Positions 799 through 58,508 of a DNA stretch of 64,000 nucleotides are shown here, one piece after another (position 1 is the stretch's first letter; each line of letters starts with the position of its first letter). The position numbers were made by a program, and so were the translations under genes. The notes below the pieces were generated by a model, which saw only the letters and a program-made list of their open reading frames with translations, did no database searches and was not told the DNA's origin. The DNA is from an uncultured virus (IMG/VR IMGVR_UViG_3300042914_003341) (Duplodnaviria; Heunggongvirae; Uroviricota; Caudoviricetes): the IMG/VR virus record IMGVR_UViG_3300042914_003341; one strand, written 5' to 3'.

Positions 799-1697
799 TG
801 GCTTAGCAGCTTGGTCAATCTGTCATGAGTTGTTTGCGGCGAAAACCAGAACGTCGTTGTAGGTTCTTTGCAGTAATCCTCCAGAAGATCGACCACTGGC
901 TCATACTGCGAGCGTTGATAGGTATAAAACCTTGCGCCGGTCAGTGTGTCGACATGTTCTTCTAGACCTTTGCAACCAAACCTGGGATTGTTCTCTCGTT
1001 CTGCCGCCAGCTCCTGCTCGGACATGGTGACATCTGCCTTGATATGTTTGAACAACCTGCCACAACGCCTGTGTGTTGGCAGCGACAGCCATGGAGTTGC
1101 ACCTTCGTTTCTTCCATCTTCTGTGTGAGCAATGAGCTGTGCAGAGTTCATGCCACTTAGCTCCTTGTTTGATGAATATTGGCGTGCCCACTGAGCCACT
1201 GAGTTCCTCCTGGCATCACACATCCTCCAGCAGATGTTTGCCGCAACATCTTCGCAAGTTGGCAGCGAAAAAGCTCTGGCATCGAACGTCGCCATATCTC
1301 CGGATATCTTGCCAGAAGCTTGAGCAAACTTTGTCGTCATCATCGACGCCATCAGGGTCGAGAACTTCAAGATTCTTCCGCCGCTCAGTTGGTTCACCTT
1401 GCTGGGTTCGAACACCATGGTGAGTTCATCTGAGAATGTGTAAAGCAGCGCTGGAGCATAGACCTTCGCCATGGCCAAAGCTGTGTCAGTCATTGCTTTC
1501 TCAAAGGCTGGATGCCATGTGTCCTTGTTGCCTTGAGCAGTTGGATAGTTTTCCTTGACCCAAGTAGAGAACCCATGGCCATCCAAACGAACAACCGCCC
1601 ATTCAAGTGGAGTTAGTTGTTTTTTGCCGCGAAACCTCTCCTCGATGTCCTTGAAGTGGTTCCCAGAATCATTGATACCTCTGATGTTCATTTGCAT
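795..1697 (-). CDS. tRNA(His) guanylyltransferase-like protein (Thg1-like, 3'-5' polymerase)
   Basis: VVRLDGHGFS, YTFSDELT, FDARAF, ICWRMCDARRNS motifs typical of Thg1/TLP. Confidence 0.92.
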   Translation of the reverse strand: MQMNIRGINDSGNHFKDIEERFRGKKQLTPLEWAVVRLDGHGFSTWVKENYPTAQGNKDTWHPAFEKAMTDTALAMAKVYAPALLYTFSDELTMVFEPSKVNQLSGGRILKFSTLMASMMTTKFAQASGKISGDMATFDARAFSLPTCEDVAANICWRMCDARRNSVAQWARQYSSNKELSGMNSAQLIAHTEDGRNEGATPWLSLPTHRRCGRLFKHIKADVTMSEQELAAERENNPRFGCKGLEEHVDTLTGARFYTYQRSQYEPVVDLLEDYCKEPTTTFWFSPQTTHDRLTKLLSQ

Positions 1698-2179
1698 TTT
1701 GTCTCCGATGCGAAGATATCAGCCAACTCGCACATTGTAAAGAGAACAGCGCGATTGTAGCCCTCCACACACTCATATCCTTGGTCTTGATAATAGCAAT
1801 TGCTGTTTATTCGACTCGCTATTTTTAACACAATCATCGAAATCGACCCAACATGCTGTTTGGTATTCACGAATAATCCATAAGCCCGTGGGATAACCAC
1901 AAGTCTTGGTCGCTGTATCATTGCGACTGAACGAACCATAGCAGCAGCAGTCGTGGTTGTCAAGTGGGCTTGGAAATGATCTGCTAATTCAAACAAAACA
2001 TCTTTACTCTCGCAGTTAAAATAGCTTCGCCACTCAAGCCACAGGCCGGATCTATGCCAGCCAGCTAAAATGAATTGCCACAAGCCAACTTCTAATCTAA
2101 ACCCATCCAAACAACCAAACATGTTACGGTTTGTAAGTTCAGCAATTCTTGGAATGATGCTGCGCAAACGCGAATTCAT
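1688..2179 (-). CDS. ELAD-motif protein with two tandem units
   Basis: LFELADHF internally and MCELADIF at the end; start refined to ATGA overlap at 2179. Confidence 0.6.
   Translation of the reverse strand: MNSRLRSIIPRIAELTNRNMFGCLDGFRLEVGLWQFILAGWHRSGLWLEWRSYFNCESKDVLFELADHFQAHLTTTTAAAMVRSVAMIQRPRLVVIPRAYGLFVNTKQHVGSISMIVLKIASRINSNCYYQDQGYECVEGYNRAVLFTMCELADIFASETKCK
1935..1963 (-). promoter_or_regulatory. sigma70-type promoter inside ORF
   Basis: TTGACA-17-TATGGT with extended TG. Confidence 0.6.
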
Positions 2180-2409
2180 TCTATTGTCACCCCGTCCGAT
2201 GTGACCAACAGGCAATCAGCCAGATCAAAGAAAAAGTCGCATGCAGGGTCGTTGAAAATGCTTATATCCAGATAATTTATTTGTTTTCTATAGGCCGAAT
2301 CACATGTTCGCCAGAGCCATCCTTGCAAGTGAATGCATCTGAGAAAATCAAGAATCATTTGATCTGTCATGCGGTCAAAATCTGGAATCACATCACGCAA
2401 AGGTTTCAT
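2176..2409 (-). CDS. small protein, ELAD-motif family
   Basis: FFFDLADCLL; start refined by ATGA overlap. Confidence 0.65.
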   Translation of the reverse strand: MKPLRDVIPDFDRMTDQMILDFLRCIHLQGWLWRTCDSAYRKQINYLDISIFNDPACDFFFDLADCLLVTSDGVTIE

Positions 2410-9848: not shown

Positions 9849-10105
9849 TGAATGATCGCTGGCGCATCGTCCGGACCACGACCGTTCTTTGCGGCAAAAG
9901 CCTGAGATAGATCAAATCCCACAGACAAACCTTTCCTGCTGTCCTCATAGTCATCCGGCCGGTCATCATCAATTCTCATCCATTCCCAGTATTCCTGCTC
10001 TCCTTGCTCAGAGAGCCAATCAAGGAAAGCATCTCTGGTTTTCTGTGATGGAAACCTGAACAACAAATCTTTGTTGTCTAAGACATAGATTGAAGATGAT
10101 GTCAT
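9836..10105 (-). CDS. hypothetical phage protein
   Basis: AFLDWLSEQGEQEYWEW; start 6 nt after -10 box. Confidence 0.7.
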   Translation of the reverse strand: MTSSSIYVLDNKDLLFRFPSQKTRDAFLDWLSEQGEQEYWEWMRIDDDRPDDYEDSRKGLSVGFDLSQAFAAKNGRGPDDAPAIIQCDL

Positions 10106-11996: not shown

Positions 11997-13115
11997 TCAG
12001 AGCTTGTTGTGCAGACCGATGATGGAGACTTTGATTTCTCGCGGCAAAATGTTTCCGTGTGTGTTTCTTAGTTCAATCTTGAACCTTGTCTTGTCTGTGG
12101 TCACCCAGGCGGATAGCTGCTTGGAGCTATCTTTCTCTGAGTAATACCTGGGATATGACAGAACAACACTCTTGATGGTTGACCCAACAAGGCTCTGCGT
12201 GGTTCTTCTGGAAATGAACTTGCAGGAGTTTTGTTGCTTGGAATTCTGGCTTGCGGAATAGTACCCAAAACCAACGGAGTTAACCAGGAATTGCCGCAAG
12301 AGTTTTCTGTGTGAGCTCATGATCTTGCTAGCCACCAGAACCATCTCAGGCCGCGCCACCTTTGTTCTGGTTTTGTTCTTGGCGTTTGTCAGTCCCTGTG
12401 TGAGCTTCGACACATCCACTGCCAGATACCGCAGGAGATTGTTTACGGTTTGATGTGTGTCTGTCTGAACGATCCGGTTGCCACTCTGTTTGAAGCAACC
12501 AACTGCACCAACAGAAGCTATTGTCAGAGCATTCCTGGCTTTGAGTGAGACATATGTCTTCTTACCGTTTGATAACTCAATGCACAGGTCTGCTATTGAT
12601 GATCCAATCCCAGCAGGTTTTGCGGCAAAATCCACAACTCTTGACGTGTTGTGATGCGCGACATGACTAACCGACCTGATCTCTGTGTTTGGTTTGGTTA
12701 TCTTGAGCTTGGAGCAGATAGCCTTGGCCATCTTCATTCCAGTAGGATACTTGCTCTCAGTCTTTCCATTGATCAAAGACTTGAATGACCTGAGAACTTC
12801 CTGCTCAAACTTGTGGCCACCATTGCCTCCAGATCCACAAACAATCTTCCAAGTAGTTTGGCATTGTGGATCCTTCACCAGATAGGTCTGATATTTCCCT
12901 GAACAGGCTCCAGGGGTTCCTGGCGGGATTGCCTTGACTATTTTCATTCCGAGCCCTCTAGCGATTAACAGGAGGTGTTCTGGGGGAGTTGGATCAGTTA
13001 GTCGCGTCGGTTGAACGCGATAACCTCCATTGCTCCTCCCAGCATCTCTCCAGGCGCCGTTGGCTCGTTTGATTAATCTTGTGACTGATTGTTTGGCGGT
13101 GAGTAACTGTTGCAT
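11997..13115 (-). CDS. putative PD-(D/E)xK endonuclease
   Basis: GHKFE...IADLCI...YVSLK; basic protein. Confidence 0.5.
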   Translation of the reverse strand: MQQLLTAKQSVTRLIKRANGAWRDAGRSNGGYRVQPTRLTDPTPPEHLLLIARGLGMKIVKAIPPGTPGACSGKYQTYLVKDPQCQTTWKIVCGSGGNGGHKFEQEVLRSFKSLINGKTESKYPTGMKMAKAICSKLKITKPNTEIRSVSHVAHHNTSRVVDFAAKPAGIGSSIADLCIELSNGKKTYVSLKARNALTIASVGAVGCFKQSGNRIVQTDTHQTVNNLLRYLAVDVSKLTQGLTNAKNKTRTKVARPEMVLVASKIMSSHRKLLRQFLVNSVGFGYYSASQNSKQQNSCKFISRRTTQSLVGSTIKSVVLSYPRYYSEKDSSKQLSAWVTTDKTRFKIELRNTHGNILPREIKVSIIGLHNKL

Positions 13116-13157: not shown

Positions 13158-13751
13158 CTAAATTCTGTCTCCGAACCGCTTGGGTTTCGGATTGTGAACA
13201 TAAAGAACCTTTGAGAGCTCTGTCATTCGTTGCAGTTGTTTGTGTTTCAAACCTGCACGTGGTGCCGTTGCTAGGTGATAGCGGCCAAGCGGCGTCATCT
13301 CTGTGATGTCATCCAAGACCAGGAGATGTTTTGGTTTCTCCTGTAGGCTGTCTAGACATTTCCAGATTGCTTCTGGCCGCGAACACTCACGTTTGCTGCA
13401 AGAACCTCCCCACACAGTTGGGGTTGAAAGAGTTTCCCAGTAAGGCGTTGCACCAACTAGTTTGCCTCGCAACCCCGACCTTGTCAAAACATCTACTGTC
13501 ACATCAAAACCCGGATTGTTCCTCCAACTTGAAGACAAGACAATGTTTGCCGCAAAACTAGGATTCTGGTCCAACCATTCATTCAGAAAACCCAGACAGG
13601 TTTGACTGATGAACTTGATTGGATCATTGACGTGGCCAGAGAATTCTTTGGTGAAAGGCGACAAAACCCCATCGACGTCAAGCATCAACAGGGTTTCGCT
13701 CCGGAAGGTGGGTGGAAGTTCGTGTGTGCTGGCTGTTAGGTGTTCAGTCAT
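13158..13751 (-). CDS. HAD-family phosphatase (Swiss Army Knife RNA-repair type)
   Basis: LDVDGVL, IVLSSSWR, LVLDD. Confidence 0.85.
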   Translation of the reverse strand: MTEHLTASTHELPPTFRSETLLMLDVDGVLSPFTKEFSGHVNDPIKFISQTCLGFLNEWLDQNPSFAANIVLSSSWRNNPGFDVTVDVLTRSGLRGKLVGATPYWETLSTPTVWGGSCSKRECSRPEAIWKCLDSLQEKPKHLLVLDDITEMTPLGRYHLATAPRAGLKHKQLQRMTELSKVLYVHNPKPKRFGDRI

Positions 13752-13760
13752 AACAACCAG

Positions 13761-13789
13761 ACACTAGCATCAGTCTTCGACGGTGTCAA
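13761..13789 (-). promoter_or_regulatory. sigma70-type promoter, near-leaderless
   Basis: TTGACA-17-TAGTGT with extended TG; ATG 9 nt downstream. Confidence 0.65.
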
Positions 13790-15401
13790 GGACGCGAGCA
13801 ACAAACAGGTTGATGTTTGTAGCAGGATTGTTCGCGACCGGTGTTGCCGCGACTGTTCCGCCATTGGCAAACTCTGACACAACATCGAAGTACGCATCAG
13901 AGAATCCACCAATGTTCAGAACCTTTCCAGCCTGATCCGGCGCTTGCGTGGTCGAACCAGCCGCAAGATCAATGCAAACAAGTCGTGCGTTGGGAACTTT
14001 CAGAGCCAGCTTGTACTGGTTCCAAACATTGATCAGAGTGCTGGCGCGATATGAACCATTGCACCATGATTCATTGTCACTGATCAATACCAGAGTATCA
14101 ACAGCGACCTTGTCAGCAATCATCTTCCGCACTGCCGCAGCACAGTCAGTTCCACCACCATTTGCACCAATCTTCTGTGCATTGGTCAGGACAGTGTCAC
14201 GAGGCTCCAGCTTCACGCTCTGCGCAGCAGTATCGAAACGATACACCTTGGTCGCCACATTGCCGCGAACAATGCATGCAGCGATCAGTGCCGCCACGTT
14301 GTTGCAAGTGATCTTCGATGAAATCCCCTTCGAGTTGGTGCCGGTGACCGGCAAATTCATTGAGCCAGAAAAGTCAACCGCAACCGCAACCCGACCATTG
14401 ATCGGAGTCATGTTCTTGGTTGCAACCTCCATTGCGTCATGAAGTGCATCACGCACAGCCGCAGGCACATCATCCGATGTGTTCATGTAAGCAGCATAGA
14501 TCTGATAAGGCATTGCACGTGCCTTGCGAACAGCCTCCGGGTCACGGAGCTTCGCTGCGATCTGCTTGGTTGCCTCTGCATCATTGAAAACACCATGACG
14601 AGCCATTGTGTTCAGGTTGATGCGCAGGGCTTGCCACCCCATCTTCCCGGAAAGCTCAACCCGCTCCTTTGTTGAAAGATCCAGAGACTGGAGCATCATG
14701 TAAGGAACGTTCTCCGGAACAACACGCTGATCAGGCTTTCCAGTACGAAACTGGACGAGCTCAAACAGCGGCTTGGGAAGCTGGAACAGATCCACACGGT
14801 CCTCTTGACCAAGGAAATACCGGTACAGTTGGTTCCGGTTCTCATCCTGCGCACGAGGGTGCACGAGCTTCACAACGTCCTTGAGAGACATTCCTCCATC
14901 ATTGTTCCCGCCAACGAAATCCTCCATGATCTGACGATCATTCCGAGCATTGAGCCAGCCCTGGACCAGCTTCTTCGGCGCAGTCCCGAAAGACTTGCGA
15001 CCAGTAACACCAGAGCGCACAACCGCACAGAAGTTCCGGAGCTGCTTCCCGTTGTCAATCACCTTGGGAAATGCACGACGAAACCGACGAGCATCCTTGT
15101 TCATCAGGAATGCTAGAAGAACAACGGGAGTGTCCTTCATGTTGTTCTCGCGGGCATAGACCGCCAGACCCTCAAGGAATCGAGGCGAAACCTCGTTGAC
15201 CAGACGCTGGACGCGCGCAATCTGGTCCTGGCCAGACGTATAGAAACCGTCGTTGAAAGTCCCAGTCAGTGCCAGGTTTGCTAGATCTACCTCTGATTCC
15301 TTGCGATACGCAAGGCCACCAGCACTGTTGCTCGCGTTTGGCACTACCAGAGCAGGCTTGCGAGCAGAATGAGAAGACGAAGAAAATACGGTGTTGTTCA
15401 T
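13770..15401 (-). CDS. rsr: Ro60/Rsr RNA-binding protein (TROVE + vWA)
   Basis: NSAGGLAY, TGTFNDGFY, RSGVTGRKSFG, vWA MIDAS DFSGSM, ISDNESW, IGGFSD. Confidence 0.93.
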   Translation of the reverse strand: MNNTVFSSSSHSARKPALVVPNASNSAGGLAYRKESEVDLANLALTGTFNDGFYTSGQDQIARVQRLVNEVSPRFLEGLAVYARENNMKDTPVVLLAFLMNKDARRFRRAFPKVIDNGKQLRNFCAVVRSGVTGRKSFGTAPKKLVQGWLNARNDRQIMEDFVGGNNDGGMSLKDVVKLVHPRAQDENRNQLYRYFLGQEDRVDLFQLPKPLFELVQFRTGKPDQRVVPENVPYMMLQSLDLSTKERVELSGKMGWQALRINLNTMARHGVFNDAEATKQIAAKLRDPEAVRKARAMPYQIYAAYMNTSDDVPAAVRDALHDAMEVATKNMTPINGRVAVAVDFSGSMNLPVTGTNSKGISSKITCNNVAALIAACIVRGNVATKVYRFDTAAQSVKLEPRDTVLTNAQKIGANGGGTDCAAAVRKMIADKVAVDTLVLISDNESWCNGSYRASTLINVWNQYKLALKVPNARLVCIDLAAGSTTQAPDQAGKVLNIGGFSDAYFDVVSEFANGGTVAATPVANNPATNINLFVARVLDTVED

Positions 15402-17053: not shown

Positions 17054-17324
17054 AGAGCATGTCTCCGATAGAGCTCAGCAACTTTGCATCCTCAAGGTCA
17101 TCGATGAATTGATCTTCCATGATGGCCAAGGCGGTTGCCCCAAAATCCGCGTTCAAGATCAGATAGAAGATTGTTTCGCGTAGATGCCTGTGCATCAGGA
17201 CGCGTTCATCCCTGATCATATGAACGACATTCTCAGCCATGACCATGATCATGTGTGTTGCGGCAAAATGTCGCCGATCCTCATCAGAAAATGGTGTGCC
17301 TAACATGTCTGGATCATTGGTCAT
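17040..17324 (-). CDS. small protein, ELAD-motif family
   Basis: LSSIGDML. Confidence 0.6.
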   Translation of the reverse strand: MTNDPDMLGTPFSDEDRRHFAATHMIMVMAENVVHMIRDERVLMHRHLRETIFYLILNADFGATALAIMEDQFIDDLEDAKLLSSIGDMLYDAS

Positions 17325-18032: not shown

Positions 18033-18307
18033 GAAATTAGCATGTCTCCAACATCTGCTAGCAGTGGCAGTCTAATGCCTTTTTGAAGTGCCCTAAGATA
18101 TCCGGTAGCATGGCCGCGAAAAGATTGAGGATCCGGATAAACGTACAAACATCGTTGTAAACCATAGCTGAGCATAGCTTGAAGCAAGTATATGTCTTTG
18201 TCTGCCGTATCTGGCGCGCAGCAATTCAGAATATTCTCGCTGATGTTGTCCAGTTGCATTTCAGAGACAAAGTAATCATCTTCTTCTTCTTGATCATCAG
18301 CATTCAC
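18029..18307 (-). CDS. small protein, ELAD-motif family
   Basis: LLADVGDML; GTGA-coupled start. Confidence 0.55.
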   Translation of the reverse strand: MNADDQEEEDDYFVSEMQLDNISENILNCCAPDTADKDIYLLQAMLSYGLQRCLYVYPDPQSFRGHATGYLRALQKGIRLPLLADVGDMLIS

Positions 18308-18867
18308 AGCAGCATATCTCCAATCTCGGCCAACGCAAGACCATGGCTGATTTCTGGTGTGTTGTTTTCTTCTAAGAAGTTGGCCATGAAGAAGAGCTGA
18401 GCGGTGCCGGTGACGGCTTGCAACGAGCAACCTACTTCTTTCACCAAATCTGAGAAGGTGTAGTATAGTCGTAATCCAATCCTTCTCTCCTTCATCTCTT
18501 CTGAGACGGGCCAGTCTTTGTTGAACAGGATGTTCGTCCAGGTTTCGCGGCGAAATGTTGCATCCGTCCAGTTCAGTCGCAGCCATAGGAGTTTGAGTGA
18601 CCTATAGCAGACGCCATCATAGTCGTCATCTAAATACCACCAGAGCTTATCTGGCTTGGGGTGGCCTTCACGCAGAGCGTCAGAGATCCAAGCATGGAAC
18701 AATGACTCACTGTAATCCCATTTGCTGTTTGGTTGCTGCACCTCCCCAATATTTTCTAGAGAAACACCATCCTTCCATCCCTCGTCAAAGATCGAAAGAA
18801 CTAGCTTGTTCTTGCGCAGCTCGTTGCCCCAGTCCCATGGCTTGCTTGTTTTTAGTGTGAATTTCAT
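18304..18867 (-). CDS. Trp-rich protein with C-terminal ELAD motif
   Basis: ALAEIGDMLL. Confidence 0.65.
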   Translation of the reverse strand: MKFTLKTSKPWDWGNELRKNKLVLSIFDEGWKDGVSLENIGEVQQPNSKWDYSESLFHAWISDALREGHPKPDKLWWYLDDDYDGVCYRSLKLLWLRLNWTDATFRRETWTNILFNKDWPVSEEMKERRIGLRLYYTFSDLVKEVGCSLQAVTGTAQLFFMANFLEENNTPEISHGLALAEIGDMLL

Positions 18868-21072: not shown

Positions 21073-21101
21073 ATCTTATCACACGATGAATGCGGCGTCA
21101 A
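21073..21101 (-). promoter_or_regulatory. sigma70-type promoter, leaderless
   Basis: TTGACG-17-TAAGAT with extended TG; ATG 6 nt downstream. Confidence 0.65.
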
Positions 21102-21814: not shown

Positions 21815-22041
21815 AGGTCACTTCCAGGAGTTTGCGGCAAAACCATGTCTGCCAGTTCAATCATGAACTCATATCGTTCAATGAAACCATCGAACCGGTA
21901 ACTGGACGAAATGAGTACCGTTTTTGGCTCAAGATGGCCGGTTGCCCTGAATGAATCATCAATTCGATACCGCAAATAATCCAGAAAATATGTGTTGAGT
22001 TGCTTTGCTATGTTTTTACGGATTCTGAGTTCTACTGTCAT
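21808..22041 (-). CDS. small protein, ELAD-motif family
   Basis: FMIELADMV. Confidence 0.65.
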   Translation of the reverse strand: MTVELRIRKNIAKQLNTYFLDYLRYRIDDSFRATGHLEPKTVLISSSYRFDGFIERYEFMIELADMVLPQTPGSDLC

Positions 22042-23266: not shown

Positions 23267-23318
23267 ATGTGGTGTTTTTTACTTACTCGTTCCTAAAGGT
23301 TTGTGTGCGTGACGATTG

Positions 23319-23347
23319 ATAGTATCAGGTGCTTGAATGGCTGTCAA
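23319..23347 (-). promoter_or_regulatory. sigma70-type promoter for IF-3
   Basis: TTGACA-17-TACTAT with extended TG. Confidence 0.7.
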
Positions 23348-23353
23348 GGGTTG

Positions 23354-24436
23354 CTAGCAGGACACGAGAGTTTTTGCCGCGGAAATGGTGCTCAGAGGTA
23401 CTTTGAACGTTGGGCGTTTGAAAGATTCAGATTTGTCAGAGAAATATACCGGTTCTGAGGCAGAACCCAGCTCATCCTTCTCCCAGGTGACTTCAATCAC
23501 TGGTCCTTTGACCTCAGTTGCTATCCGACGTTGCTCATCGACGTTTGCTGACCATTGCACCGGTTTTGGCATGAAGACATCGCCATTCCTGTTTGGTGTG
23601 AGTTTGTTGAAGACCAGGGCAAGATGATCCTTGACCATGGTCGTCTGGAGTTCATTCAGCGCTGTTGGGTTTGCCATCTCAAAGAAACCTTGGAGCCAGT
23701 ACACGAACTGATCTGGTGTGATTGGCTGAGGTCTATTCTCTGGATGTTTTGCCGCCATTCTGTATGGATGATCAGCTCCCTTTGTCTTGCTGACCGCATT
23801 GGATTGATCAAACAAGTTCACGAACTTATGATCTGGGAACTTGTGCAGGATCTTGTCGACGTACTTGCCACGCTTGTAGTCGAATCCTGTCTTTGTCACA
23901 GTTTTATCAGCCATGTCCTTCAAGGCTCCAGGCTCCCCGGTGATCTTCTTTGTCACATGATTCCATGTGAACTTGGAGATCTCAACTGGAAATGACCCCA
24001 GGAGCTTTGACAGATCTGAGAACTCTGTCACAATCACTTGATATTTGATCCGATGAGCACCACTCAAGACAGATGATCGCCAGTCGATATGGCCGTCATA
24101 AACCCATTTGATCCCCGGGTTGCGATAGCCATAATCATCCGAATCGTCTGAGTATCGATCGCCCCGAGTTGCCTCTTTGACGTCAAAACCGGCTTCTCTG
24201 AGGGTGAACTCTAGTTGTGTCTTTGTGATCGTCGTGCCAATCAAGAAGATGTCAATGTCTGACGCTGGCTGCTGACGATACCATTCACGTGGAGCACCTC
24301 CAGCAACAACAGCTTCACGTGTCCATGGCAAATGACTGAGTGTTGACATCAGGTGATCTGTCGCAGCTTTCTGCGCCTTGATCAACTCTGCTGAGTCTTT
24401 TTGTTTGTGATAGTTTTTTAGTTCTGCTTTGTTCAC
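23354..24436 (-). CDS. Pol-beta-superfamily nucleotidyltransferase (CCA/poly(A)-like head) with extra C-terminal domain
   Basis: VAGGAPR...SDIDIF; GTG start overlapping upstream TGA; C-terminal TPDQFVYWLQGFFE segment. Confidence 0.75.
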   Translation of the reverse strand: MNKAELKNYHKQKDSAELIKAQKAATDHLMSTLSHLPWTREAVVAGGAPREWYRQQPASDIDIFLIGTTITKTQLEFTLREAGFDVKEATRGDRYSDDSDDYGYRNPGIKWVYDGHIDWRSSVLSGAHRIKYQVIVTEFSDLSKLLGSFPVEISKFTWNHVTKKITGEPGALKDMADKTVTKTGFDYKRGKYVDKILHKFPDHKFVNLFDQSNAVSKTKGADHPYRMAAKHPENRPQPITPDQFVYWLQGFFEMANPTALNELQTTMVKDHLALVFNKLTPNRNGDVFMPKPVQWSANVDEQRRIATEVKGPVIEVTWEKDELGSASEPVYFSDKSESFKRPTFKVPLSTISAAKTLVSC

Positions 24437-26992: not shown

Positions 26993-27189
26993 AGCGGGTC
27001 CAAGGAATTGAACCTTGATAGTCCATCGATGGAGGCAAGAGATTTTGGCCGCGAAACATGATCAGTGCTCGGAACAAAAACTCTTGTAATCAACCATCTA
27101 GCTGAATGCAGATCATTGATCAGATGACCTACACCGGCAGACCCTGCCAGATTGGACTCTGGCGGCATTAGCCAAAATGCGTGACCCGC
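26993..27189 (-). ncRNA. giant tRNA-like RNA (Gly-type acceptor, about 125-nt variable region)
   Basis: GCGGGTC/GACCCGC-T, D arm, GCCAG-AGTCCAAT-CTGGC arm, T arm CAAGG-TTCAATT-CCTTG. Confidence 0.75.
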
Positions 27190-27211: not shown

Positions 27212-27327
27212 CTGGGACGATCGGAGTCGAACCGATAGAGGGGCCTCGCGGATACCCTGTCAGGTTTCGCCGCAAAACTATTCTTGCAGCTACCGACTGA
27301 CTTCTCTGTCCATTTGAATACATCCCA
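27212..27327 (-). ncRNA. tRNA-like RNA with about 33-nt anticodon loop and long variable arm
   Basis: TGGGATG/CGTCCCA, GTCAG/CTGAC stem, T arm ATCGG-TTCGACT-CCGAT. Confidence 0.7.
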
Positions 27328-28581: not shown

Positions 28582-28625
28582 AAACACAAACTACAAGGCA
28601 TGAAGGTTCTGCGGCAAAAACAAGT

Positions 28626-29720: not shown

Positions 29721-29798
29721 TGCGGCGACAACTAGAAGGCAACCATGGTGTTGTTTATTCTGTATGATGGATGTAAACACCTTGGTACATTCGCCGCG
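29721..29798 (-). ncRNA. Y RNA-like stem-loop 5
   Basis: GCGGCGAATG...TACATC...TTGTCGCCGC. Confidence 0.75.
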
Positions 29799-29831
29799 AA
29801 AACCTAAATCACATTCAAACTATTATCTTAG

Positions 29832-37594: not shown

Positions 37595-37599
37595 GACAT

Positions 37600-39074: not shown

Positions 39075-39100
39075 GTTGTTAGTGAAGGTAACTACGACTC

Positions 39101-42168: not shown

Positions 42169-42807
42169 TCAAGTGAGCTTGGACGAAGGACTAGTAGGTT
42201 TTTGCCGCAAAACCGTGTTGGTGCTGCAACCTGCACGTTTATGACCTTTTGAGGCAATACCCACAAGACCACCGGCCGATGTGGTGACGTGGTCTTCGAG
42301 GAAGAATGATCTAAGAAACAAAGCTATGCCCTTGTAGCTCCAGAAAGGTTTCGCGTTGGTTGGCTTGGAAGACAAAGTCTGGTCAAACGCAGTCAGCATT
42401 GCTGGGAGTCTGTCAAAGATCTCATGTTTTGCGGAAGGAAACTCTTTGATCTTGTCTATCACGTTTGAAACGGCAACAACGCAGTAATCATCTGGGTTTG
42501 CTAGCGGATACTGTTTATAATCTTCATCGCTAGAAAGCATGGCCACAGCCACGGAAGCCAGCGGAGTTGATGTGGTGTTCATGTAGCTACCAGCTTTCAG
42601 CAGCAACAGACATTGTTGTCTTGTGATTCCAAGACGTCTAGAAACTTCAATGATCCTGTGCTGGGATGGACGCAGATCGTTGTTGAATGCAAGGTGCACC
42701 TGTGCTGCGAAATACGTCAAGAACACGTCACCGTTCTCAGTAGCGCTGTTTGTAATCGTTATCTCTGGGAGGGATTGATCATGATCTTTGTCTGCGCTAC
42801 GTACCAT
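42169..42807 (-). CDS. hypothetical protein
   Basis: 212-aa ORF with AAGGA upstream. Confidence 0.65.
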   Translation of the reverse strand: MVRSADKDHDQSLPEITITNSATENGDVFLTYFAAQVHLAFNNDLRPSQHRIIEVSRRLGITRQQCLLLLKAGSYMNTTSTPLASVAVAMLSSDEDYKQYPLANPDDYCVVAVSNVIDKIKEFPSAKHEIFDRLPAMLTAFDQTLSSKPTNAKPFWSYKGIALFLRSFFLEDHVTTSAGGLVGIASKGHKRAGCSTNTVLRQKPTSPSSKLT

Positions 42808-46219: not shown

Positions 46220-46852
46220 TTAAGTATAGATCTTCATTCCGCCGCGAACAATCACGTAGGAGTCACAGGCATCGTACATGTCATTGTCATAGACCTCTTC
46301 ACCCTTGTGGTGGCCGGTCTTGGCAATGTGTTTGCGCCATGGGAACTCAGGATGTTTTGCCGTGACATAATCAAATACCTTCTCTTTTTGAGATTTTGAT
46401 TTGTCTTTGCGGTCTGGATCTTTGTATCCAATCTTGCTTCTAGCACTGGTCACATTCACATCAAGGAGTGTGACTGGCTGAACATATGCATCAGTTGTCA
46501 TTGCAATGTAAGACACAATCCCATTGAACTTGGCCAGTGTTAATACCACATCTGCACTGCTAGCACCCTTTTTGAACTGTTTAGCGTTTGCTTCAACAAA
46601 GATCTTTTTGGGCTGTAGATGATTGTTGATCATCATCAGGTCAAACTCTTTTTTGAAGTATGCTGCTTTGGTGAAGAGCGTTGCGTCCTCGCCAAGCTGA
46701 TTCTCCTTGTTTGGCTTCAAGATGATTGAATCGAAGAGAAGAGGCATGCCGTCTGGGTTCTTGGGATCAAGTGCCGTGACCCCGACGACTGAGGTTGATA
46801 TGTCAAGGCCGATATAGCATGAAACTGGGCTTGGTTGGCTAGTGTTTGTCAT
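46220..46852 (-). CDS. RuvC-like Holliday junction resolvase
   Basis: YIGLDISTSVVG, IFVE, DACDSYVI. Confidence 0.82.
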   Translation of the reverse strand: MTNTSQPSPVSCYIGLDISTSVVGVTALDPKNPDGMPLLFDSIILKPNKENQLGEDATLFTKAAYFKKEFDLMMINNHLQPKKIFVEANAKQFKKGASSADVVLTLAKFNGIVSYIAMTTDAYVQPVTLLDVNVTSARSKIGYKDPDRKDKSKSQKEKVFDYVTAKHPEFPWRKHIAKTGHHKGEEVYDNDMYDACDSYVIVRGGMKIYT

Positions 46853-46909
46853 GTTGTTTTGCAGACCATATTCTGCCGCAAAAACGTTGAGATGTCAAGG
46901 ACCGGGCAT

Positions 46910-47417: not shown

Positions 47418-49490
47418 TTATCGAAACAGCATCTCAGCCAGTGACATGGGCTGGCTGTTTGTTAGATCTGGTGGAGGCCATGGCATGAATGGGTTGTTCG
47501 GGTCTTCTGGTCTGTAGTTGGCTTTGAAAGACACATATTCCGGTGGCAGGTAAGGAGAAGTCCACCAGTGACTGGCGTATGAGGACGTGCCTTTACTATT
47601 GTCATATTCAGTATCATGATGTCTTGCTATCTCGGCAAGTTTTCTCATGATCTCGTGAACCAAGGAAACGTCGCCACCATTGAAATCAGTGTTCACATAG
47701 TCAACAACATCCGAAACTGTACTCATCGCTTCACGCCGACGAATGTTGCTAGAAAGATTTGCATTTAGGATTCTTTGAACTATTTCAAATCTTGAAGAAT
47801 CCAGGCTCATGATCCCGCGGACAAGGAGTCTGTCTGCTAGTTCTCTGAATTGGCCGGTAACTGGATACTGTTCAAACCCAAGTGCAAAAAGCAACTGTGC
47901 AACCGCGTAATATGTTTGATCGATCATATCAGCGTCCCAACCCAGAAGGCCGTTGATGCGTTGCGCTATTTCTGGTTTGGATAAAATGCTTCGACCAGAA
48001 CTGATCAGTGTTTCAAGGTTTGGGAGTATGAACTGAGTGATAACTTTGTTCAGTGTTTGTGGAGAGATGTTTGTGTGCATGTAGCGAACTTGAAAAAACC
48101 ATGCACTCAACTTGCTGTCTGGGGTTCCTTTGGTGTCAGGAGAAAACAGTATGACCTCTGTGTGCGTATCAAAGTTTTCTGCCGCGAAAAGCTCTATGAT
48201 CTGCTGATATTTGTTCCTGGCTTCTGGATCCAGAGACATGTCGAGTGCGTTTTCTCTGATCGCCTGATGGAACTGTTTTTGGTTCAGAAACTTGGCATTG
48301 TAGATCAGCCTGAGTTCGCGGCCTTCAAGGTTCCCAGTCTCGATCATATGCAGTGCCACCGGAATTGAATTCACAAACTTGACAACTGGGGTTTTCAGGT
48401 AAGACTCCAGTTTAGAGAAACCAAGATCTAATAGCCATGAAGCGTTCTGTATATATTTTGCAAGTTCCCCTTGGTTGATATCAACCGGAAATGTCCAACC
48501 TGGATCTGTGTAATGGTTGGACATGGTCGCAAGTTCACCAAAAGCGCTGTTTGTGACACCGTACTTTTTCAGCAACTCGTTTAGATACACACACATGTCG
48601 AAATGGAACAGCGGGTAAAATTCTTCGCTTGGTGTTTCATTTAGAACTAGCAGTGCAACATAAGGCTCTGGCGATGCGCCGTTATAAGCGTCCTCAAAGA
48701 ACTTTCTGTGCGCCACTGGATCGCGCGCGGCTTTGTCATAGAAACCTTTCAGGGGATGATCACCAGAAGATGATGCATGAGCTGTGATTGTGTCAATGAT
48801 TTTATTTCTTGTGCGTACATCAGCCTTTGTTTTAAGCTGCTCAATCACATCAGTCCAAGTGATGCCACGATTGTTTGCGTTAACGGACAATCCGCCGTCT
48901 TGACCACCAGAAAATTTGCCGTTAGGACCAAAACCAATGCTCATCTTGGCGTTTGGCTCTTCTTGTGGATTGACGCCTTTGGTGATCAGGTAATAGAGTT
49001 TGTTCCCAGCACCGGCATAATAGGGGAAATAGTTTGTCGACTGAGTCCTTGCAGTGCACCATGTAGTTCCTTTGCCCCAGACACAACTAGCCTCTTTGCT
49101 ATGAGGATAGATGACAACAAAATTATCATCCTCGTACACCTTTTCGACTTGACCTTTGATATCGTTTCTGATCGATGTCTGGGAAGGTGCAAGTGATTCA
49201 ATTGCGGCTTGAACCTCGGCAAGACTGTCATAGAGCGACAGATCTTTCTTTGACAGTTTAGCTCTTGCTTTGTTGAATGCTGCAACCAAGCTTAGAACCT
49301 CTTGAACCGGTTCATTTGCTTTATCGAGCAGCTTCATGATTGTTGGCCATGTTGCTGGCGGGTTGCCAGAGTTTGATACGGCTTCAACGTCCGAAAGACG
49401 TTTGGGATATTTTCTCTGTAAACTGGCTAGGATTTCTTTTGCAGAGGCTTCCTGAAGAATTTGAAGCAAACTAAGACATTGATTCTTCAT
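47418..49490 (-). CDS. large protein with TTWCTA (PcfJ-like) domain, paralogue A
   Basis: KEASCVWGKGTTWCTA, AKMSIGF, GGLSVNA. Confidence 0.75.
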   Translation of the reverse strand: MKNQCLSLLQILQEASAKEILASLQRKYPKRLSDVEAVSNSGNPPATWPTIMKLLDKANEPVQEVLSLVAAFNKARAKLSKKDLSLYDSLAEVQAAIESLAPSQTSIRNDIKGQVEKVYEDDNFVVIYPHSKEASCVWGKGTTWCTARTQSTNYFPYYAGAGNKLYYLITKGVNPQEEPNAKMSIGFGPNGKFSGGQDGGLSVNANNRGITWTDVIEQLKTKADVRTRNKIIDTITAHASSSGDHPLKGFYDKAARDPVAHRKFFEDAYNGASPEPYVALLVLNETPSEEFYPLFHFDMCVYLNELLKKYGVTNSAFGELATMSNHYTDPGWTFPVDINQGELAKYIQNASWLLDLGFSKLESYLKTPVVKFVNSIPVALHMIETGNLEGRELRLIYNAKFLNQKQFHQAIRENALDMSLDPEARNKYQQIIELFAAENFDTHTEVILFSPDTKGTPDSKLSAWFFQVRYMHTNISPQTLNKVITQFILPNLETLISSGRSILSKPEIAQRINGLLGWDADMIDQTYYAVAQLLFALGFEQYPVTGQFRELADRLLVRGIMSLDSSRFEIVQRILNANLSSNIRRREAMSTVSDVVDYVNTDFNGGDVSLVHEIMRKLAEIARHHDTEYDNSKGTSSYASHWWTSPYLPPEYVSFKANYRPEDPNNPFMPWPPPDLTNSQPMSLAEMLFR

Positions 49491-51400: not shown

Positions 51401-51652
51401 TCAATACCACGAGACGTGATAGAGGCGTTTCAGCTTCTCAAAGAACGCTGTTACGGCAAAATGTTCGGGTATTTTTACGATATATCTAGAACCGGTGCTC
51501 GACTTGTCGCTTTCGACGCTGACGCCGTATTTTCTAGCGATGGCATCTGCGGCCCAGTCGTAGTAGCCCCAAGCAATCATCTTTTTTGTCGAAGCGCCAG
51601 GACGACCATGAGGTGCTGGGAATGTGATTTTGTAGGTTTTTGTTTCTGTCAT
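51401..51652 (-). CDS. hypothetical protein
   Basis: ATGA-coupled ORF. Confidence 0.6.
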   Translation of the reverse strand: MTETKTYKITFPAPHGRPGASTKKMIAWGYYDWAADAIARKYGVSVESDKSSTGSRYIVKIPEHFAVTAFFEKLKRLYHVSWY

Positions 51653-52110
51653 CTGGTTTTTTTTCTTGTAGGTTTGCTCTTGACTGTACCAGTCATGCCA
51701 AGCGCTGTCAAGGATTTTCTGATTGCTTCTATCATCAGGTTGGTCCAGAAAACGTATTCATACCCATTCGATTCACACCAGAGCTTGACGGCTTTCTGTT
51801 TCGCTATCACTTTGAGATCTAGGAGTTTGTCTTTCCTCTTGACCTCGATCACCTTGTTCTTGGAGTTGATATATTGAACAATGAAGTCTGGGTAGTAAGT
51901 GTGAGTTTTGCCGCGAAACAAATACGGTATCTGCAATGCTTCGTACTGATACGAAACAACAGTTGCATCGTGGTCCAGATACTGTGCCACAGAGAGCTCC
52001 CATGAACTTCGATAGTTGACAGGACCGGATGTGCATTTGGTAGAGTTGTATGTACCGGTGATATAGTGTTTGCGACGCCTGCGTCTCTTCTTAGTCGGAG
52101 TCATGATCAC
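51649..52110 (-). CDS. head-completion nuclease (T4 gp4/TnsA N-terminal-like)
   Basis: YRSSWE, YQYE..IPY, YYPDF, IEVK. Confidence 0.85.
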   Translation of the reverse strand: MIMTPTKKRRRRRKHYITGTYNSTKCTSGPVNYRSSWELSVAQYLDHDATVVSYQYEALQIPYLFRGKTHTYYPDFIVQYINSKNKVIEVKRKDKLLDLKVIAKQKAVKLWCESNGYEYVFWTNLMIEAIRKSLTALGMTGTVKSKPTRKKTR

Positions 52111-54536
52111 CAGTCAATCCCGACTCTGAACTTAAGTTTGTCACTAGCTCTCTTTAAAGTAGGTTGTGATAGCCTACTCTTTCCTATGACATTGAGATTC
52201 TCGTCATGGACGTAGAGGTCAGTAATGTAGACGTATCGTTCATCCAGGTTCATGTTTGGGTTGTTGTCGACTTGCAGATCTGGAGCCCATGAGCTATTTG
52301 ATGAAGAGATGAGCTGGAGCGGGTTTGCGTACATGTTGTACTTGACGGTGTACACGTTTCTTTCGCCGCGAAATCGTACGTCAAACCCATTCTTGCCAAA
52401 GTGGTATAGCGAAGGATGCTTGATCATCACAATACCATGTTCATAGAACACATTTCCAACTGAGCACCTTTTGGCTAGACTCCCAGACCAATCAGAACGA
52501 TACAGACTACCAAACCCATCATCTTTCAGTGTCATGGACAATTGTCCGCTAGAACACGAAACATTGTTGTCTGTGATTGAGAAATGACCCGGCAAGATCC
52601 TGTCGCCATAGAACAAGTTGCTGATATCAAACAAAACAACCTGCAAGGATCCATTGTCCATAGTTCGCTGCAAGATTGTTGGTGTCTGCTGATAATTCAA
52701 CGTGCCAAACGAGCTAGTGTTGTTCAGTCCGGACAGTGATTCAATGATTGACTGAGTCACAGGAACGTTCAATGTGATAGATCCGGAACTTGGTCCAACA
52801 TCATCATAGATCGCATCCAGAGAGTACATGTCTCTGAGAGTCACAATGTTGTAAGACAGATCTCCATTGTCATTCACGTACATCGACTGATCAATATCAC
52901 TCCCAGAGAGAAGACCAGCAAAATCTGGAACAAACAAACCATTGTCACATGGCAGAACAGTGAGACTGGCTTTTCTGACTGAACCAGTGGCATAAAGGAA
53001 TTGGTTGGCTGTTGCTAGTTCTGTGTTGCCTTGGATCACGGATCCTGTCAGTTGAACAAGTCTCGGATAGTTGCCAAGAACAAACTCACGTGTCCAGTTC
53101 TCCAGGTTGATGTAATGACCTCCAGTGTCAAATGACATGTCAACGTTGAAAGGGTGTCTGGTTGAACCGTCGATGTTTGTGAAAGGGTGAGCTAGAACAC
53201 CACCCCAGCCACCATTTGAATCGACTGATCTGGTGGGTGAATTTGGAGTGAATGCTGGGGGGATCTGAAACAGCATTCCAGGGATTGAACCAGAACAAGA
53301 TCCAGAAGACCCTAGTAGAGCAATCTCGTCTCGCCGCAAAACTCTGTCGAACAGTTTCAGGTCCAAAACTTCTGCTTGTAATGGATTCCTAAAAGCATAA
53401 AACCCTGTTGGAGTGTCGTCTGTGCTGGTAATGAACTCTAATCCGCTCACAGGGACACCATAGCGCAACTGAGCCGTGGACGAAAACCACTTGTCTCTGT
53501 CTGTGGTGCTAGCACCGTCATAGAAGTTTCCAACTGCTAGGATCTTTGGCAGAACCTTGCCCGACTGTTCCCTAGGTGCTATCGTGCTCCCAGTGAACAC
53601 AAAGTTGCCTGCACTGACATCGTTCACAACAAAAGAACCGGTCGAACTGTTGAACACACTCCCACCCCAGAAAACACTGACATGGTTCCATGTGTTGTGT
53701 TGCAGGATGCTGCTGCTGTCATCAGAAACATAAACCATTGCCGGTGGATTGTTCGGATCAATTGTATCTGGTCTTGTGTCTGCTGCCGAACTGAGTTGCA
53801 ACATCAACCTGAAGTTGTTCTTGGATCCATTTGGTTGAATAGATGAACCAGTGATCAAACTCAGAGCATAGCAACCAGAGTAGTGCAAGATAGTTCCTGG
53901 AACAAATTCTACTGCCCGTCCTGGGGTGTAACGCGGATTGATCCATAGGTCGAACGTGAAGGCGCCAGACGGAATATAGGAGGCCGTTACGAATGCGTTC
54001 GCAGCTCCTACGCTAGCAGTACATGGATAGAGGAGGACAGAGCTGGTTGGTACATCGGATCCGGAGAAGAAGTTCAGTGAGTTATAGTTTGTGAAAGAGA
54101 AGTCGTAGTTGGTACTCCTGGTGGAATATTCTGGGATCAGTCTGTTGGCAGTTACCAACTTCATTGTCATTGGCAGAGACAGGTCAGAGCCGGGGGTGAA
54201 ACGTTCAACATCTTGTCTGGCATTGAGACGACTGCTTGATGGCTGTGTCTTGACCATGGACAGATACTGTCTCACTAGCGGCGTCATCGACGAAGGAGAT
54301 GCTTGGTTTGCTTGCTGCAAAACATCTGTGATATCTGCCGCAGCCACGAACGCATTGGTTGGAGCAGTATCGGTCGCATGCCAGTTGACATAAAAGTCTT
54401 TCAGTCTATCAGAAGCATGTGGATAGACATAGGCACTCCCAGTTATTCCGGAAGCGCCTGATGTGAAGTGAGACTCTGGATTTGTTTGAACTGTGAATAG
54501 TTCTATGTCTTCTGGACGGAAAGGTTGCAACGACAT
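52107..54536 (-). CDS. virion structural protein with LamG-like domain
   Basis: FTFDLWINP, WNHVSV; TGS/SGS-rich; C-terminal YITDLYVHDENLNVIGKSRLSQP. Confidence 0.7.
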   Translation of the reverse strand: MSLQPFRPEDIELFTVQTNPESHFTSGASGITGSAYVYPHASDRLKDFYVNWHATDTAPTNAFVAAADITDVLQQANQASPSSMTPLVRQYLSMVKTQPSSSRLNARQDVERFTPGSDLSLPMTMKLVTANRLIPEYSTRSTNYDFSFTNYNSLNFFSGSDVPTSSVLLYPCTASVGAANAFVTASYIPSGAFTFDLWINPRYTPGRAVEFVPGTILHYSGCYALSLITGSSIQPNGSKNNFRLMLQLSSAADTRPDTIDPNNPPAMVYVSDDSSSILQHNTWNHVSVFWGGSVFNSSTGSFVVNDVSAGNFVFTGSTIAPREQSGKVLPKILAVGNFYDGASTTDRDKWFSSTAQLRYGVPVSGLEFITSTDDTPTGFYAFRNPLQAEVLDLKLFDRVLRRDEIALLGSSGSCSGSIPGMLFQIPPAFTPNSPTRSVDSNGGWGGVLAHPFTNIDGSTRHPFNVDMSFDTGGHYINLENWTREFVLGNYPRLVQLTGSVIQGNTELATANQFLYATGSVRKASLTVLPCDNGLFVPDFAGLLSGSDIDQSMYVNDNGDLSYNIVTLRDMYSLDAIYDDVGPSSGSITLNVPVTQSIIESLSGLNNTSSFGTLNYQQTPTILQRTMDNGSLQVVLFDISNLFYGDRILPGHFSITDNNVSCSSGQLSMTLKDDGFGSLYRSDWSGSLAKRCSVGNVFYEHGIVMIKHPSLYHFGKNGFDVRFRGERNVYTVKYNMYANPLQLISSSNSSWAPDLQVDNNPNMNLDERYVYITDLYVHDENLNVIGKSRLSQPTLKRASDKLKFRVGIDW

Positions 54537-56459: not shown

Positions 56460-56483
56460 ACTATTCTTTCTCTGGATTATTAG

Positions 56484-58508
56484 TTATCTGTTGGTTCTTG
56501 TGTCTAAGACTTGAAACTTGACCGTCTGATCTTTTTGCAGGTCGAGGTTGATCAGCTTGATGACATATTCGCCACCAGATTCTTGCGTTTTGATCAATCC
56601 AAGGTCATCGCCGCGAATATTCTTCAGATTCAAGAAATCCGGGTTCAAAACAACCGTCATCTGGCTATAGCCCTCGTTCTTGATCGTGTCGACAAAAACC
56701 TGCTTGTTGATCAGAAGGTTTGGATATGTCTTCGGAGCTCCGGGTGGCGATATATCCACACGCTCTATTGTGTTTCTCTGACGGTTGAAACTAACGCCGA
56801 TCTGGTTGCTGTAACAGCTTGACTGACCGTGTGCATCAATCGCGACAACTGCATAGATGTAGTAATCGAGCGGATTGAACTCATGATCGATCCAAGAAGT
56901 GACAGTTTGAGATGAACTGCTCTGACGATTGTTTGATCCAAACATATCAATCACACTGTTCTTGGCCATGGCGTTCTCTGTGCCTGGAAGAAGGAACTTG
57001 AAGTAAACTGGATCGAAGAGTTTGTCATAAACAACACCTTGCCCATTCTCCAAATCGTTGAAATCATACATCGCAGCTAGTTCAAACGGTAGCTGGACCG
57101 GCCTGAACTGTCCGCGATTCTTGCGGCGAAACACTTGGAAATATTTAACAGAACGCCTTGTGTCAACCGGAAAATTCCAGGTGAGCATTGGCTTGAGTGT
57201 TGATGGATCAAGGGAGACAAAGAAGTCAGTTGGTGCCGGTGGAGGCTCTATGTCAACGCACTGCACGAATGTGCGTACCGGCTCACTTGCAATCATAAAA
57301 ACCACTGCAAAATTCTGTCCTGTGGTTTTATCAGTCACAACAGCTCTAAACGCAGTCACTGATTTTACTGAGTAATAGTACGTCTGGTTGTATGCAACGC
57401 CACTGTCATAGAATTGCGTGATGGCCGGTGTTTCAACAAAGAACATCTCTGGCTCACTCAAACTCAACGTTGGATTCGGCTGATCAGTGGTGCCTTGCGT
57501 TGCTCGGCGTTTTTCAATCACATAGCCTGCGGATCTAAAACTGATAGGCGGCATGCCAGATTCAGACGGCACTTCCCCGTCGTCTAGCTGCTTGTATGAA
57601 ATGATGTTGTCGGTTATTGCTTGCCCAATGCCATACTGAGATAGGTTGAACCTAGGTCTGACTGTTGATATTACTGATTGAAGATCAAGCGATTTAACAA
57701 TCTGTGCGGCGGCATTTGCAGATTTGTCTGAAAGCGGATCAGCACAATAAAGCGAGGACAACACAGATCCTGCGACAGTGCTTGATAATGTAACACCAAT
57801 CCCAATGTCTTCGTTCTCATAAACGGTATCGAGTGACTGGTTCAATGTCGGTGAGTTGATCCGCGCCGATCCAACCATCACCTCGGATGATCCATAGCTC
57901 AAATATTTACTAAGGAAATCTTGATCCACGCCCTCTGGGGTTGCGTTATACAGGCTGGAAATGGCGGCTTGAAGTGTTGGCTTTATCTCCCCAGCAGATC
58001 TTTGTTGGTTTCCGTTCAGTGTTGCAAGCTCAGTGCTAAGTCGACTTAGAATTGAACGCGTGTTTGAAACAAAGTCAAGTTCATGCTGGGAATAATCCAC
58101 AAAAAGTTTTGATACAGCAATATCATTCTCAGCGAGAAGTTTGTGTCTGTTTTCTGCAATCGAAGATACATTTAGTTCAACAGCGCTAGCTGGACTGAGG
58201 TTACTGTGATCAACTGCCGACCAGTTCAAAACAACATAACGTGGCAACGTTCTTAGTTTTGTTGTGTCAATGTTCTGGTCGCTCGGACTGGACTGTAAAC
58301 CAACAGCGCCAAGTGCAAACTCTTTCGGCTCAAAGAAATTGTAAACAAACTCTGCGCGCAACGAGAGTGGGTTTGGTGTATCGACCATGATCGCCGGAGC
58401 GCTGGGGAGTGATTTGCCAGCAGGCGCTGAAAGCGCCAACGAAAACTCTGTTTGTATCTGCGCGCTCAAGGCGATTTGGTCGGATATTGATCTGAGCTGA
58501 TTTGTCAT
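56484..58508 (-). CDS. probable structural protein with FN3-like segments
   Basis: YNQTYYYSV, PPPAP..LTW, YYIYAVVAIDAHG. Confidence 0.65.
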   Translation of the reverse strand: MTNQLRSISDQIALSAQIQTEFSLALSAPAGKSLPSAPAIMVDTPNPLSLRAEFVYNFFEPKEFALGAVGLQSSPSDQNIDTTKLRTLPRYVVLNWSAVDHSNLSPASAVELNVSSIAENRHKLLAENDIAVSKLFVDYSQHELDFVSNTRSILSRLSTELATLNGNQQRSAGEIKPTLQAAISSLYNATPEGVDQDFLSKYLSYGSSEVMVGSARINSPTLNQSLDTVYENEDIGIGVTLSSTVAGSVLSSLYCADPLSDKSANAAAQIVKSLDLQSVISTVRPRFNLSQYGIGQAITDNIISYKQLDDGEVPSESGMPPISFRSAGYVIEKRRATQGTTDQPNPTLSLSEPEMFFVETPAITQFYDSGVAYNQTYYYSVKSVTAFRAVVTDKTTGQNFAVVFMIASEPVRTFVQCVDIEPPPAPTDFFVSLDPSTLKPMLTWNFPVDTRRSVKYFQVFRRKNRGQFRPVQLPFELAAMYDFNDLENGQGVVYDKLFDPVYFKFLLPGTENAMAKNSVIDMFGSNNRQSSSSQTVTSWIDHEFNPLDYYIYAVVAIDAHGQSSCYSNQIGVSFNRQRNTIERVDISPPGAPKTYPNLLINKQVFVDTIKNEGYSQMTVVLNPDFLNLKNIRGDDLGLIKTQESGGEYVIKLINLDLQKDQTVKFQVLDTRTNR

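Follow-up and report, generated by a model that had tools for sequence, protein, structure and literature searches.

A dispersed 13-base palindrome in a fragment of a large lake-water phage, a candidate docking site for a dimeric DNA-binding protein

The element treated here is a 13-base palindrome (TTTYGCSGCRAAA) that recurs across a 64-kb stretch of DNA, called the window below, which is a fragment of a novel, large, uncultured lake-water phage (IMG/VR record IMGVR_UViG_3300042914_003341). The described systems with which it can be compared include: (i) the stoperators of cluster A mycobacteriophages, which are 13-base sites, asymmetric, oriented with transcription and mostly intergenic, (ii) the sites of chromosomal organisers, among them Noc and matS, which are dispersed genome-wide, (iii) the KorB operator (OB) of IncP-1 plasmids, and (iv) the HIP1 palindrome of cyanobacteria. 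KorB is a ParB-family, CTP-dependent clamp that binds OB of the plasmids RK2 and R751. The operator is given as TTTAGC(G/C)GCTAAA (TTTAGCSGCTAAA) (PMC2680271, PMC13768133), and twelve copies are mapped over the ~60-kb RK2 and conserved in R751 (PMC13768133). HIP1 is described as strongly over-represented, conserved beyond codon conservation, unlinked to promoters or start codons and of unknown function, with one-base deviations that concentrate at its outer positions (PMC4390886, PMC5861425); a methylation-dependent repair ratchet has been proposed for it by Elhai (PMC5861425, PMC4390886). For the chromosomal ParB of Pseudomonas aeruginosa, half-sites that form a graded series are reported (PMC5961200).

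The window holds 7 exact copies of TTTYGCSGCRAAA, compared to none in any of 100 dinucleotide-preserving shuffles (mean 0.00, maximum 0). When one mismatch is allowed, 21 sites are found where 0.28 are expected, and none of the 100 shuffles (maximum 2) reaches this number. A third-order Markov model predicts 0.02 full 13-mers, 0.29 eleven-mers and 3.6 copies of the 9-base core TYGCSGCRA, where 7, 13 and 36, respectively, are seen, and control palindromes of like composition (with a W centre at 13 or 11 bases, swapped R/Y, inverted arms, or CG in place of GC) stand at or below their Markov expectation. The half-sites GCGGCAAAA and GCCGCAAAA (17 and 11 copies, respectively, both strands together) rank among the most over-represented 9-mers of the window. 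The enrichment is confirmed as real and robust. A preliminary description, made from the letters alone, had named six exact sites (1622, 12618, 27265, 42200, 51906 and 52361), eight one-mismatch sites and abundant half-sites; all are present, together with a seventh exact site that had been missed (18543) and six more one-mismatch sites (17256, 23372, 27044, 29789, 53329 and 57119). The over-representation in coding and non-coding DNA likewise holds, with 16 of the 21 sites intragenic and 5 non-coding, far above the shuffles. Sites inside RNA genes, which had also been claimed, are absent: the four sites of the tRNA array (27044, 27265, 28607 and 29789) all lie in its spacers (~8% of the window), between tRNA genes or 26–81 bases from them.

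The palindrome is not accounted for by the proteins encoded over it. The 16 coding sites are spread over frames 0, 1 and 2 as 5, 5 and 6. A synonymous-codon shuffle within genes, in which proteins and codon usage are kept, leaves a mean of 1.23 exact copies, and codon permutation leaves 1.01, with the one intergenic exact copy held fixed in both and counted as 1; none of 200 codon-level shuffles reaches 7. The 9-base core, seen 36 times, falls to 8.2 and 4.8 in the two shuffles, respectively. Coding positions at which the peptide permits the 13-mer number nine, and the motif is realised at six of them, compared to 0.137 expected from codon usage (Poisson P 8e-9). The 11-mer is realised at 11 of 20 permissive positions and the core at 33 of 89, and two of the three permissive positions left unrealised by the 13-mer are one-mismatch sites (one of them 9887). 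Of six 13-mers used as controls (W centre, swapped R/Y, inverted arms and others), which have 5, 1, 1, 4, 0 and 1 permissive positions, respectively, none is realised at any of these positions. The permissive peptides are themselves enriched about eight-fold (9, compared to 1.11 in 300 residue-order shuffles, none of which reaches 9). Since permissive positions are realised far above the codon expectation and the permissive peptides are in excess as well, the motif is a signal that acts at the DNA level, with enough strength to skew both the choice of codons and the protein sequence. The preliminary description had allowed that the enrichment might vanish under codon-preserving shuffling, with F-A-A-K codons in a single frame as the cause; it does not, as the three frames, the roughly one copy left after codon shuffles and the six realised positions attest.

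The motif consists of the half-site TTTYGC on each side of an S centre, with TYGCSGCRA as the strongest core. Its arms co-occur: among 169 GCSGC cores, 16 carry TTTY, 28 carry RAAA and 7 carry both (odds ratio 4.9, P 0.0066). The choice of base at position 4 (Y) is independent of that at position 10 (R); thus, the unit is the half-site TTTYGC read twice, and the pairing of the arms favours a putative dimeric reader of double-stranded DNA. The S centre is specific, with the W-centre core found at 10 of 100 permissive positions (7.6 expected). The sites are graded, from the 36 nine-base cores through the 13 eleven-mers to the 7 full 13-mers. GCSGC alone is moderately enriched (169 compared to 110, z 7.5), and 7-mers outside the 9-base cores number 41 compared to ~30; the bare GCSGC core that had been put forward is not supported as the selected unit, and selection is on at least nine bases. 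Flanks outside the 13 bases show no conservation (≤0.39 bits), which led to the rejection of a longer repeat or mobile element.

Strains of the phage, near-identical to the window or 90–95% alike, are found in lake-water, freshwater, groundwater and wastewater metagenomes of 16 studies. Both exact sites covered by the contig L010 (51906 and 52361) are unchanged at 91% nucleotide identity. The phage is present in the lake-water sequencing runs X1–X5; X5 and X6 are near-identical to the window, and X8 and X10 are of the 90–95% class. In the comparison with X8 and X10, which rests on 40 of 1,529 differences listed, site 9887 is exact in both by the synonymous change 9887 C>T, and X8 carries also 9893 G>C, in which the centre changes yet remains S; the 9 bases that follow this site carry 4 changes. 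At 57119, strain L011 has lost one further arm base. The related IMG/VR contig G001 (47 kb, 66–83% protein identity, GC 50.5%) contains 4 eleven-mers where 0.18 are expected, 14 cores where 2.7 are expected and a single exact site, and its most strongly enriched words include GCGGCGAA(A) and TTCGCGGC; the genes under its site cluster are tRNA methyltransferase-like and IMPDH/GMP reductase-like. The motif is absent from the more distant contig G002 (48.6 kb, 54% identity, GC 34%) and from two metagenome contigs of 54% identity (L012 and L013). The completeness of G001 and G002 (47–49 kb) is rated by CheckV at 13% each, which implies genomes of several hundred kb and places most of the phage genome beyond the window.

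The 13-base palindrome is a DNA-level signal kept by selection and is tentatively regarded as providing, most likely, the docking sites of a dimeric DNA-binding protein. This reading is favoured by the length of the motif, its two-fold symmetry, the specific S centre and the strain changes that preserve the motif. The docking sites would be read by a two-fold symmetric, sequence-specific dimer made by the phage or its host and, by analogy with KorB, may load or anchor a protein that acts genome-wide (in organisation, silencing or partition) and not on single promoters. The likeness to OB is close: each is an odd palindrome of 13 bases centred on S, with a GC-S-GC core and TTT/AAA arms, and 11 of 13 positions are identical (TTT-N-GC-S-GC-N-AAA). 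About ten OB copies are dispersed over ~60 kb, inside and between genes, as in the window (a control count in R751 gave 10 exact operator copies in 53.4 kb, some of them intragenic), and one window site (46871) overlaps a promoter in the manner of a class I operator. The two differ at positions 4 and 10, which are Y and R in the window motif and A and T in the operator. A KorB/ParB-type reader is the most specific version of the docking-site reading and a rather improbable one. Spelled out, this equally speculative proposal is that a very large freshwater phage would carry a retuned KorB-operator-like palindrome in its own codons, every ~2–9 kb; the copies would make up a loading lattice that receives a phage-encoded clamp of the ParB/KorB type or another dimeric organiser, and its specificity would have switched through positions 4 and 10. 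The sites of chromosomal ParB (half-parS of P. aeruginosa), Noc and matS are similar in being genome-wide palindromic or half-palindromic targets of a dimeric organiser; they differ in sequence, in residing on cellular chromosomes and in having known binders.

A number of findings weigh against docking sites, or against a KorB-type reader in particular. Of the 14 one-mismatch sites, 13 have the mismatch in the plus-strand left arm (positions 1–4; the 3' arm of the coding strand), including all 4 that are non-coding, a bias not predicted by a strictly symmetric reader; the two-mismatch sites show no such bias, with 3 altered in the left arm, 3 in the right and 7 with one mismatch per arm. Gaps between sites are Poisson-like (CV 1.03 for the 21 sites and 0.88 for the 36 cores), and no regular spacing was found in the window. 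Distances from the sites to start and stop codons are no shorter than for randomly placed positions (P 0.63 and 0.59, respectively), and windows upstream of gene starts hold no significant excess of the 21 sites (P 0.11–0.52). Three sites (46871, 42200 and 23372) are promoter-proximal, compared to 0.92 expected, which is not significant (P 0.06); in this lack of a significant promoter association the window appears to depart from the KorB system. Sites turn over between strains that are ~90% identical, with 1 core lost in 7.3 kb and 2 gained, which occur in the L010 and L011 strains and are missing from the window. RK2-type OB sites are absent from the window even at 1 mismatch, and OB is all-or-none (9 thirteen-mers, 10 eleven-mers and 10 nine-mers in the first 50 kb of R751), in contrast to the graded 7, 13 and 36 of the window.

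The search for a binder bears on the docking-site reading in the same direction. Neither ParB, KorB, a helix-turn-helix protein nor another DNA-binding regulator family was recognised among the window open reading frames (ORFs) scanned with Pfam (116) and PHROGs (103), and ParB_N is absent from G001 and G002, the contigs rated 13% complete. A tblastn search with KorB, IncC and KorA of R751 gave no homologue (best E 0.24), and over the window and related DNA examined no KorB, ParB, ParA or KorA homologue was found, a further apparent difference from the KorB system. KorB-like proteins were found in only 21 of 50,697 phage records. Two elements with KorB-like proteins of 31–37% identity have 0 copies of TTTNGCSGCNAAA, as the window has none of the RK2-type site; thus, the architecture common to the KorB operator and the window motif may be a coincidence. 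The gene downstream of the site-overlapping promoter (46220-46852) was considered as a lineage-specific regulator and rejected, as its family is widespread on large phage contigs and one member is labelled a RuvC-type resolvase. Comparison of gene 42169-42807 and of five tandem paralogues with PDB sequences returned nothing informative on a binder. A literature search with the exact 13-mers found nothing on prokaryotic site recognition; the matches concern mainly eukaryotic gene regulation, including E2F, an overlap treated as coincidence.

The main rival, possible though doubtful, is a HIP1-like iterated palindrome that is made or kept via methylation of the GC core (e.g., by a GCSGC/GCNGC cytosine methylase of phage or host) and biased repair, or that has a methylation-tied genome-wide role, and that would need no dedicated binder. 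Similarly to HIP1, the window motif is a hyper-abundant palindrome that exceeds codon expectation, occurs in every frame and extends to non-coding DNA, it has no link to promoters or start codons, and its deviations are mostly at the outer arm positions. The graded, Poisson-spaced, promoter-independent and partly unstable pattern, with its turnover between strains, is closer to cyanobacterial HIP1 than to OB. The excess of GCSGC also speaks for this rival, as does the wider palindrome content of the window: GATC is enriched (484 compared to 358, z 9.8), as is TGATCA (70 compared to 36), and palindromes are enriched as a class (8-mers, 350 compared to 254). The GATC, TGATCA and palindrome-class enrichments are compatible with a DNA-level process beyond a single binder. 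By contrast, HIP1 is a palindrome of 8 bases in cellular genomes with known orphan methylases, whereas the window motif spans 9–13 bases with A/T arms on a phage fragment; no DNA methylase family is found in the window ORFs of the Pfam (116) and PHROGs (103) scans, and HIP1 itself (GCGATCGC) has 0 copies in the window. The 9–13 bases under selection are far longer than the 5-base site of a methylase, and the modest count of 7-mers outside the cores points the same way. A host with the palindrome is not evident among the matches listed from a weak scan of 185,579 species genomes with one 14-base form, which gave at least 120 matches, the 80 examined being single hits in unrelated taxa of many phyla. 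The absence of the motif from G002, L012 and L013 also counts against a HIP1-like origin. The preliminary description had offered a site for a dimeric protein and a modification-linked, HIP1-like motif side by side; the trivial explanations are removed and the pairing of the arms is real, and the tests do not decide between the two.

Global-repressor operators, which would act like stoperators to block initiation or elongation along the single-strand gene array, are an unlikely explanation. They would share with stoperators the 13-base length and the scatter over a phage genome, and nearly all genes of the window are on one strand. Site 46871-46883 does overlap the -10 box of the promoter-like element at 46898..46870 (minus; TTGACA-17-CAGAAT), as had been described, and two further sites precede -35 boxes, 42200 by 46 bases and 23372 by 31. 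However, 16 of the 21 sites are intragenic, no excess is significant near promoters (P 0.06–0.25), start codons (P 0.63) or in upstream windows (P 0.11–0.52), and the window motif is palindromic with co-occurring arms, in contrast to the asymmetric, oriented stoperators, with which it is not classed. An RNA-level signal on sense transcripts, such as a processing or binding site, is still less probable. The genes and the tRNA array share a single direction of transcription, 4 of the 21 sites fall in tRNA-array spacers, and the perfect arm is the same in 13 of 14 one-mismatch sites, a hint of orientation; yet the arms co-occur as an inverted repeat, which an RNA signal would not need, no hairpin can form from 6-base arms with one base between them, and the two-mismatch class is symmetric. 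That peptide content or codon usage (F-A-A-K, F-R-G-K and similar) gave rise to the palindrome incidentally is barely conceivable and was rejected, for while five of the nine permissive peptides start with F-R in frame 0, the motif occupies all three frames and five non-coding places, protein-preserving shuffles give ~0.2 coding copies compared to 6 observed, and the permissive-position and control tests go against it.

If the sites are docking sites, even the protein sequences of a very large lake phage are moulded by the need to retain a mark in its DNA, and the 13-mer would be a handle for fishing out the protein and for studying the organisation, silencing or partition of huge phage genomes. 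The loading lattice, if true, would amount to a plasmid-style system of genome-wide control or segregation, operating in a phage whose genome measures several hundred kilobases. Should the HIP-like reading hold, a phage would be seen to carry a HIP-type palindrome, which could help to test methylation and repair models of HIP origin. The statistical signal is unusually clean under either reading, given six of nine permissive codon positions realised, and a narrow literature search found no published description of a phage docking lattice or of a HIP-type phage palindrome.

Table 1. Exact and one-mismatch copies of the palindrome (window positions, 13 bases each, strand (.)).
Class	Position	Sequence	Context
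Exact	1622..1634	TTTTGCCGCGAAA	Inside Thg1-like gene (795-1697, minus), frame 0
Exact	12618..12630	TTTTGCGGCAAAA	Inside gene 11997-13115, frame 2 (D-F-A-A-K)
Exact	18543..18555	TTTCGCGGCGAAA	Inside ORF 18304-18867
Exact	27265..27277	TTTCGCCGCAAAA	Spacer between tRNA-Gly and tRNA-Val
Exact	42200..42212	TTTTGCCGCAAAA	Near 3' end of gene 42169-42807; centre 46 bases upstream of TTGACA -35 box at 42160
Exact	51906..51918		TnsA/endonuclease-I-like gene 51649-52110; identical in L010 (91% nucleotide identity)
Exact	52361..52373		809-aa gene 52107-54536; identical in L010
One mismatch	832..844	GTTTGCGGCGAAA	
One mismatch	9887..9899	CTTTGCGGCAAAA	Peptide A-F-A-A-K
One mismatch	12037..12049	TCTCGCGGCAAAA	
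One mismatch	13545..13557	GTTTGCCGCAAAA	
One mismatch	17256..17268	TGTTGCGGCAAAA	
One mismatch	21830..21842	GTTTGCGGCAAAA	
One mismatch	23372..23384	TTTTGCCGCGGAA	Centre 31 bases upstream of -35 box at 23347, which precedes IF3-like gene
One mismatch	27044..27056	TTTGGCCGCGAAA	tRNA-array spacer
One mismatch	28607..28619	TTCTGCGGCAAAA	26 bases from tRNA-Ala
One mismatch	29789..29801	ATTCGCCGCGAAA	tRNA-array spacer
One mismatch	46871..46883	TTCTGCCGCAAAA	In spacer; overlaps -10 box of promoter-like element 46898..46870 (minus)
One mismatch	48177..48189	TTCTGCCGCGAAA	
One mismatch	53329..53341	TCTCGCCGCAAAA	
One mismatch	57119..57131	TCTTGCGGCGAAA	One further arm change in strain L011

The minus strand carries nearly all genes of the window. 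The tRNA array (26715-31697) comprises 14 genes by ARAGORN to 16 genes by Rfam, and beside it stands an RNA-repair and translation set, with neighbours that include 795-1697, 13158-15401, 22697-24589 and 39939-40823. This set includes a Thg1-like tRNA-His guanylyltransferase, a HAD RNA-repair domain, Ro60/TROVE, an IF3-like factor, a nucleotidyltransferase and an R2K ATP-grasp protein. The window also encodes a carbamoyltransferase and the TnsA/endonuclease-I-like nuclease. A gene content of this kind (IF3-like, Thg1-like, Ro60/TROVE, HAD, R2K, carbamoyltransferase and TnsA-like) is typical of very large phages. The GenBank phage collection has no match to the window DNA or to its 809-aa protein, a species-genome scan with this protein gave no match, and viral-contig scans with five further window queries found no additional genome sequence.

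Five tandem paralogues of ~245 aa each occupy 36129-39868 and are 16–38% identical to the first copy (the 16% copy is 39101-39868), with a distant sixth at 41346-42098 (14% identical to the first); the five have no family match and no PDB-sequence match. Strains X8 and X10 skip 9139/9157-9846 (688–706 bases), 21088-21338 (249 bases) and 25443-25728 (284 bases); thus, small genes vary in presence between strains.

No long palindrome of another kind was seen in G001, G002, L012 or L013, where only short enrichments of 6–8 bases occur. A set of short palindromes peculiar to G001 is over-represented there, GTCCGGAC (10 compared to 0.6), TGCTAGCA (12 compared to 1.9) and TTGCTGCAAA, and in G002 the word AAAGCTTT is over-represented (32 compared to 8.3). 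In the window, the 6-base palindromes CTGCAG, CAGCTG, CTCGAG, AGTACT, GCCGGC and TAATTA are absent, where protein-preserving shuffles lead to an expectation of 7–19 copies each, and TTAA, GTAC, GGWCC and CYCGRG are depleted. The missing and depleted palindromes look like restriction-site avoidance. The GATC excess of the window is strongest in TGATCA and in GATCGATC (10 compared to 2.3), and the excess of palindromes as a class is seen in 10-mers too (117 compared to 69).

A sigma-70-type promoter family is apparent on the minus strand, with the form CTTGACA-N17-TAnnnT and a -10 box that is often preceded by TG (e.g., 15505, 29597, 4913, 31867, 42160, 28089 and 31026); CTTGACA occurs 28 times on this strand and 4 times on the plus strand. 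The promoters often reside in the final 10–60 bases of the preceding gene, and a longer common form, CACTTGACAACC.TCCCAGCCTCTGATA, is shared by those at 15505, 29597 and 4913.

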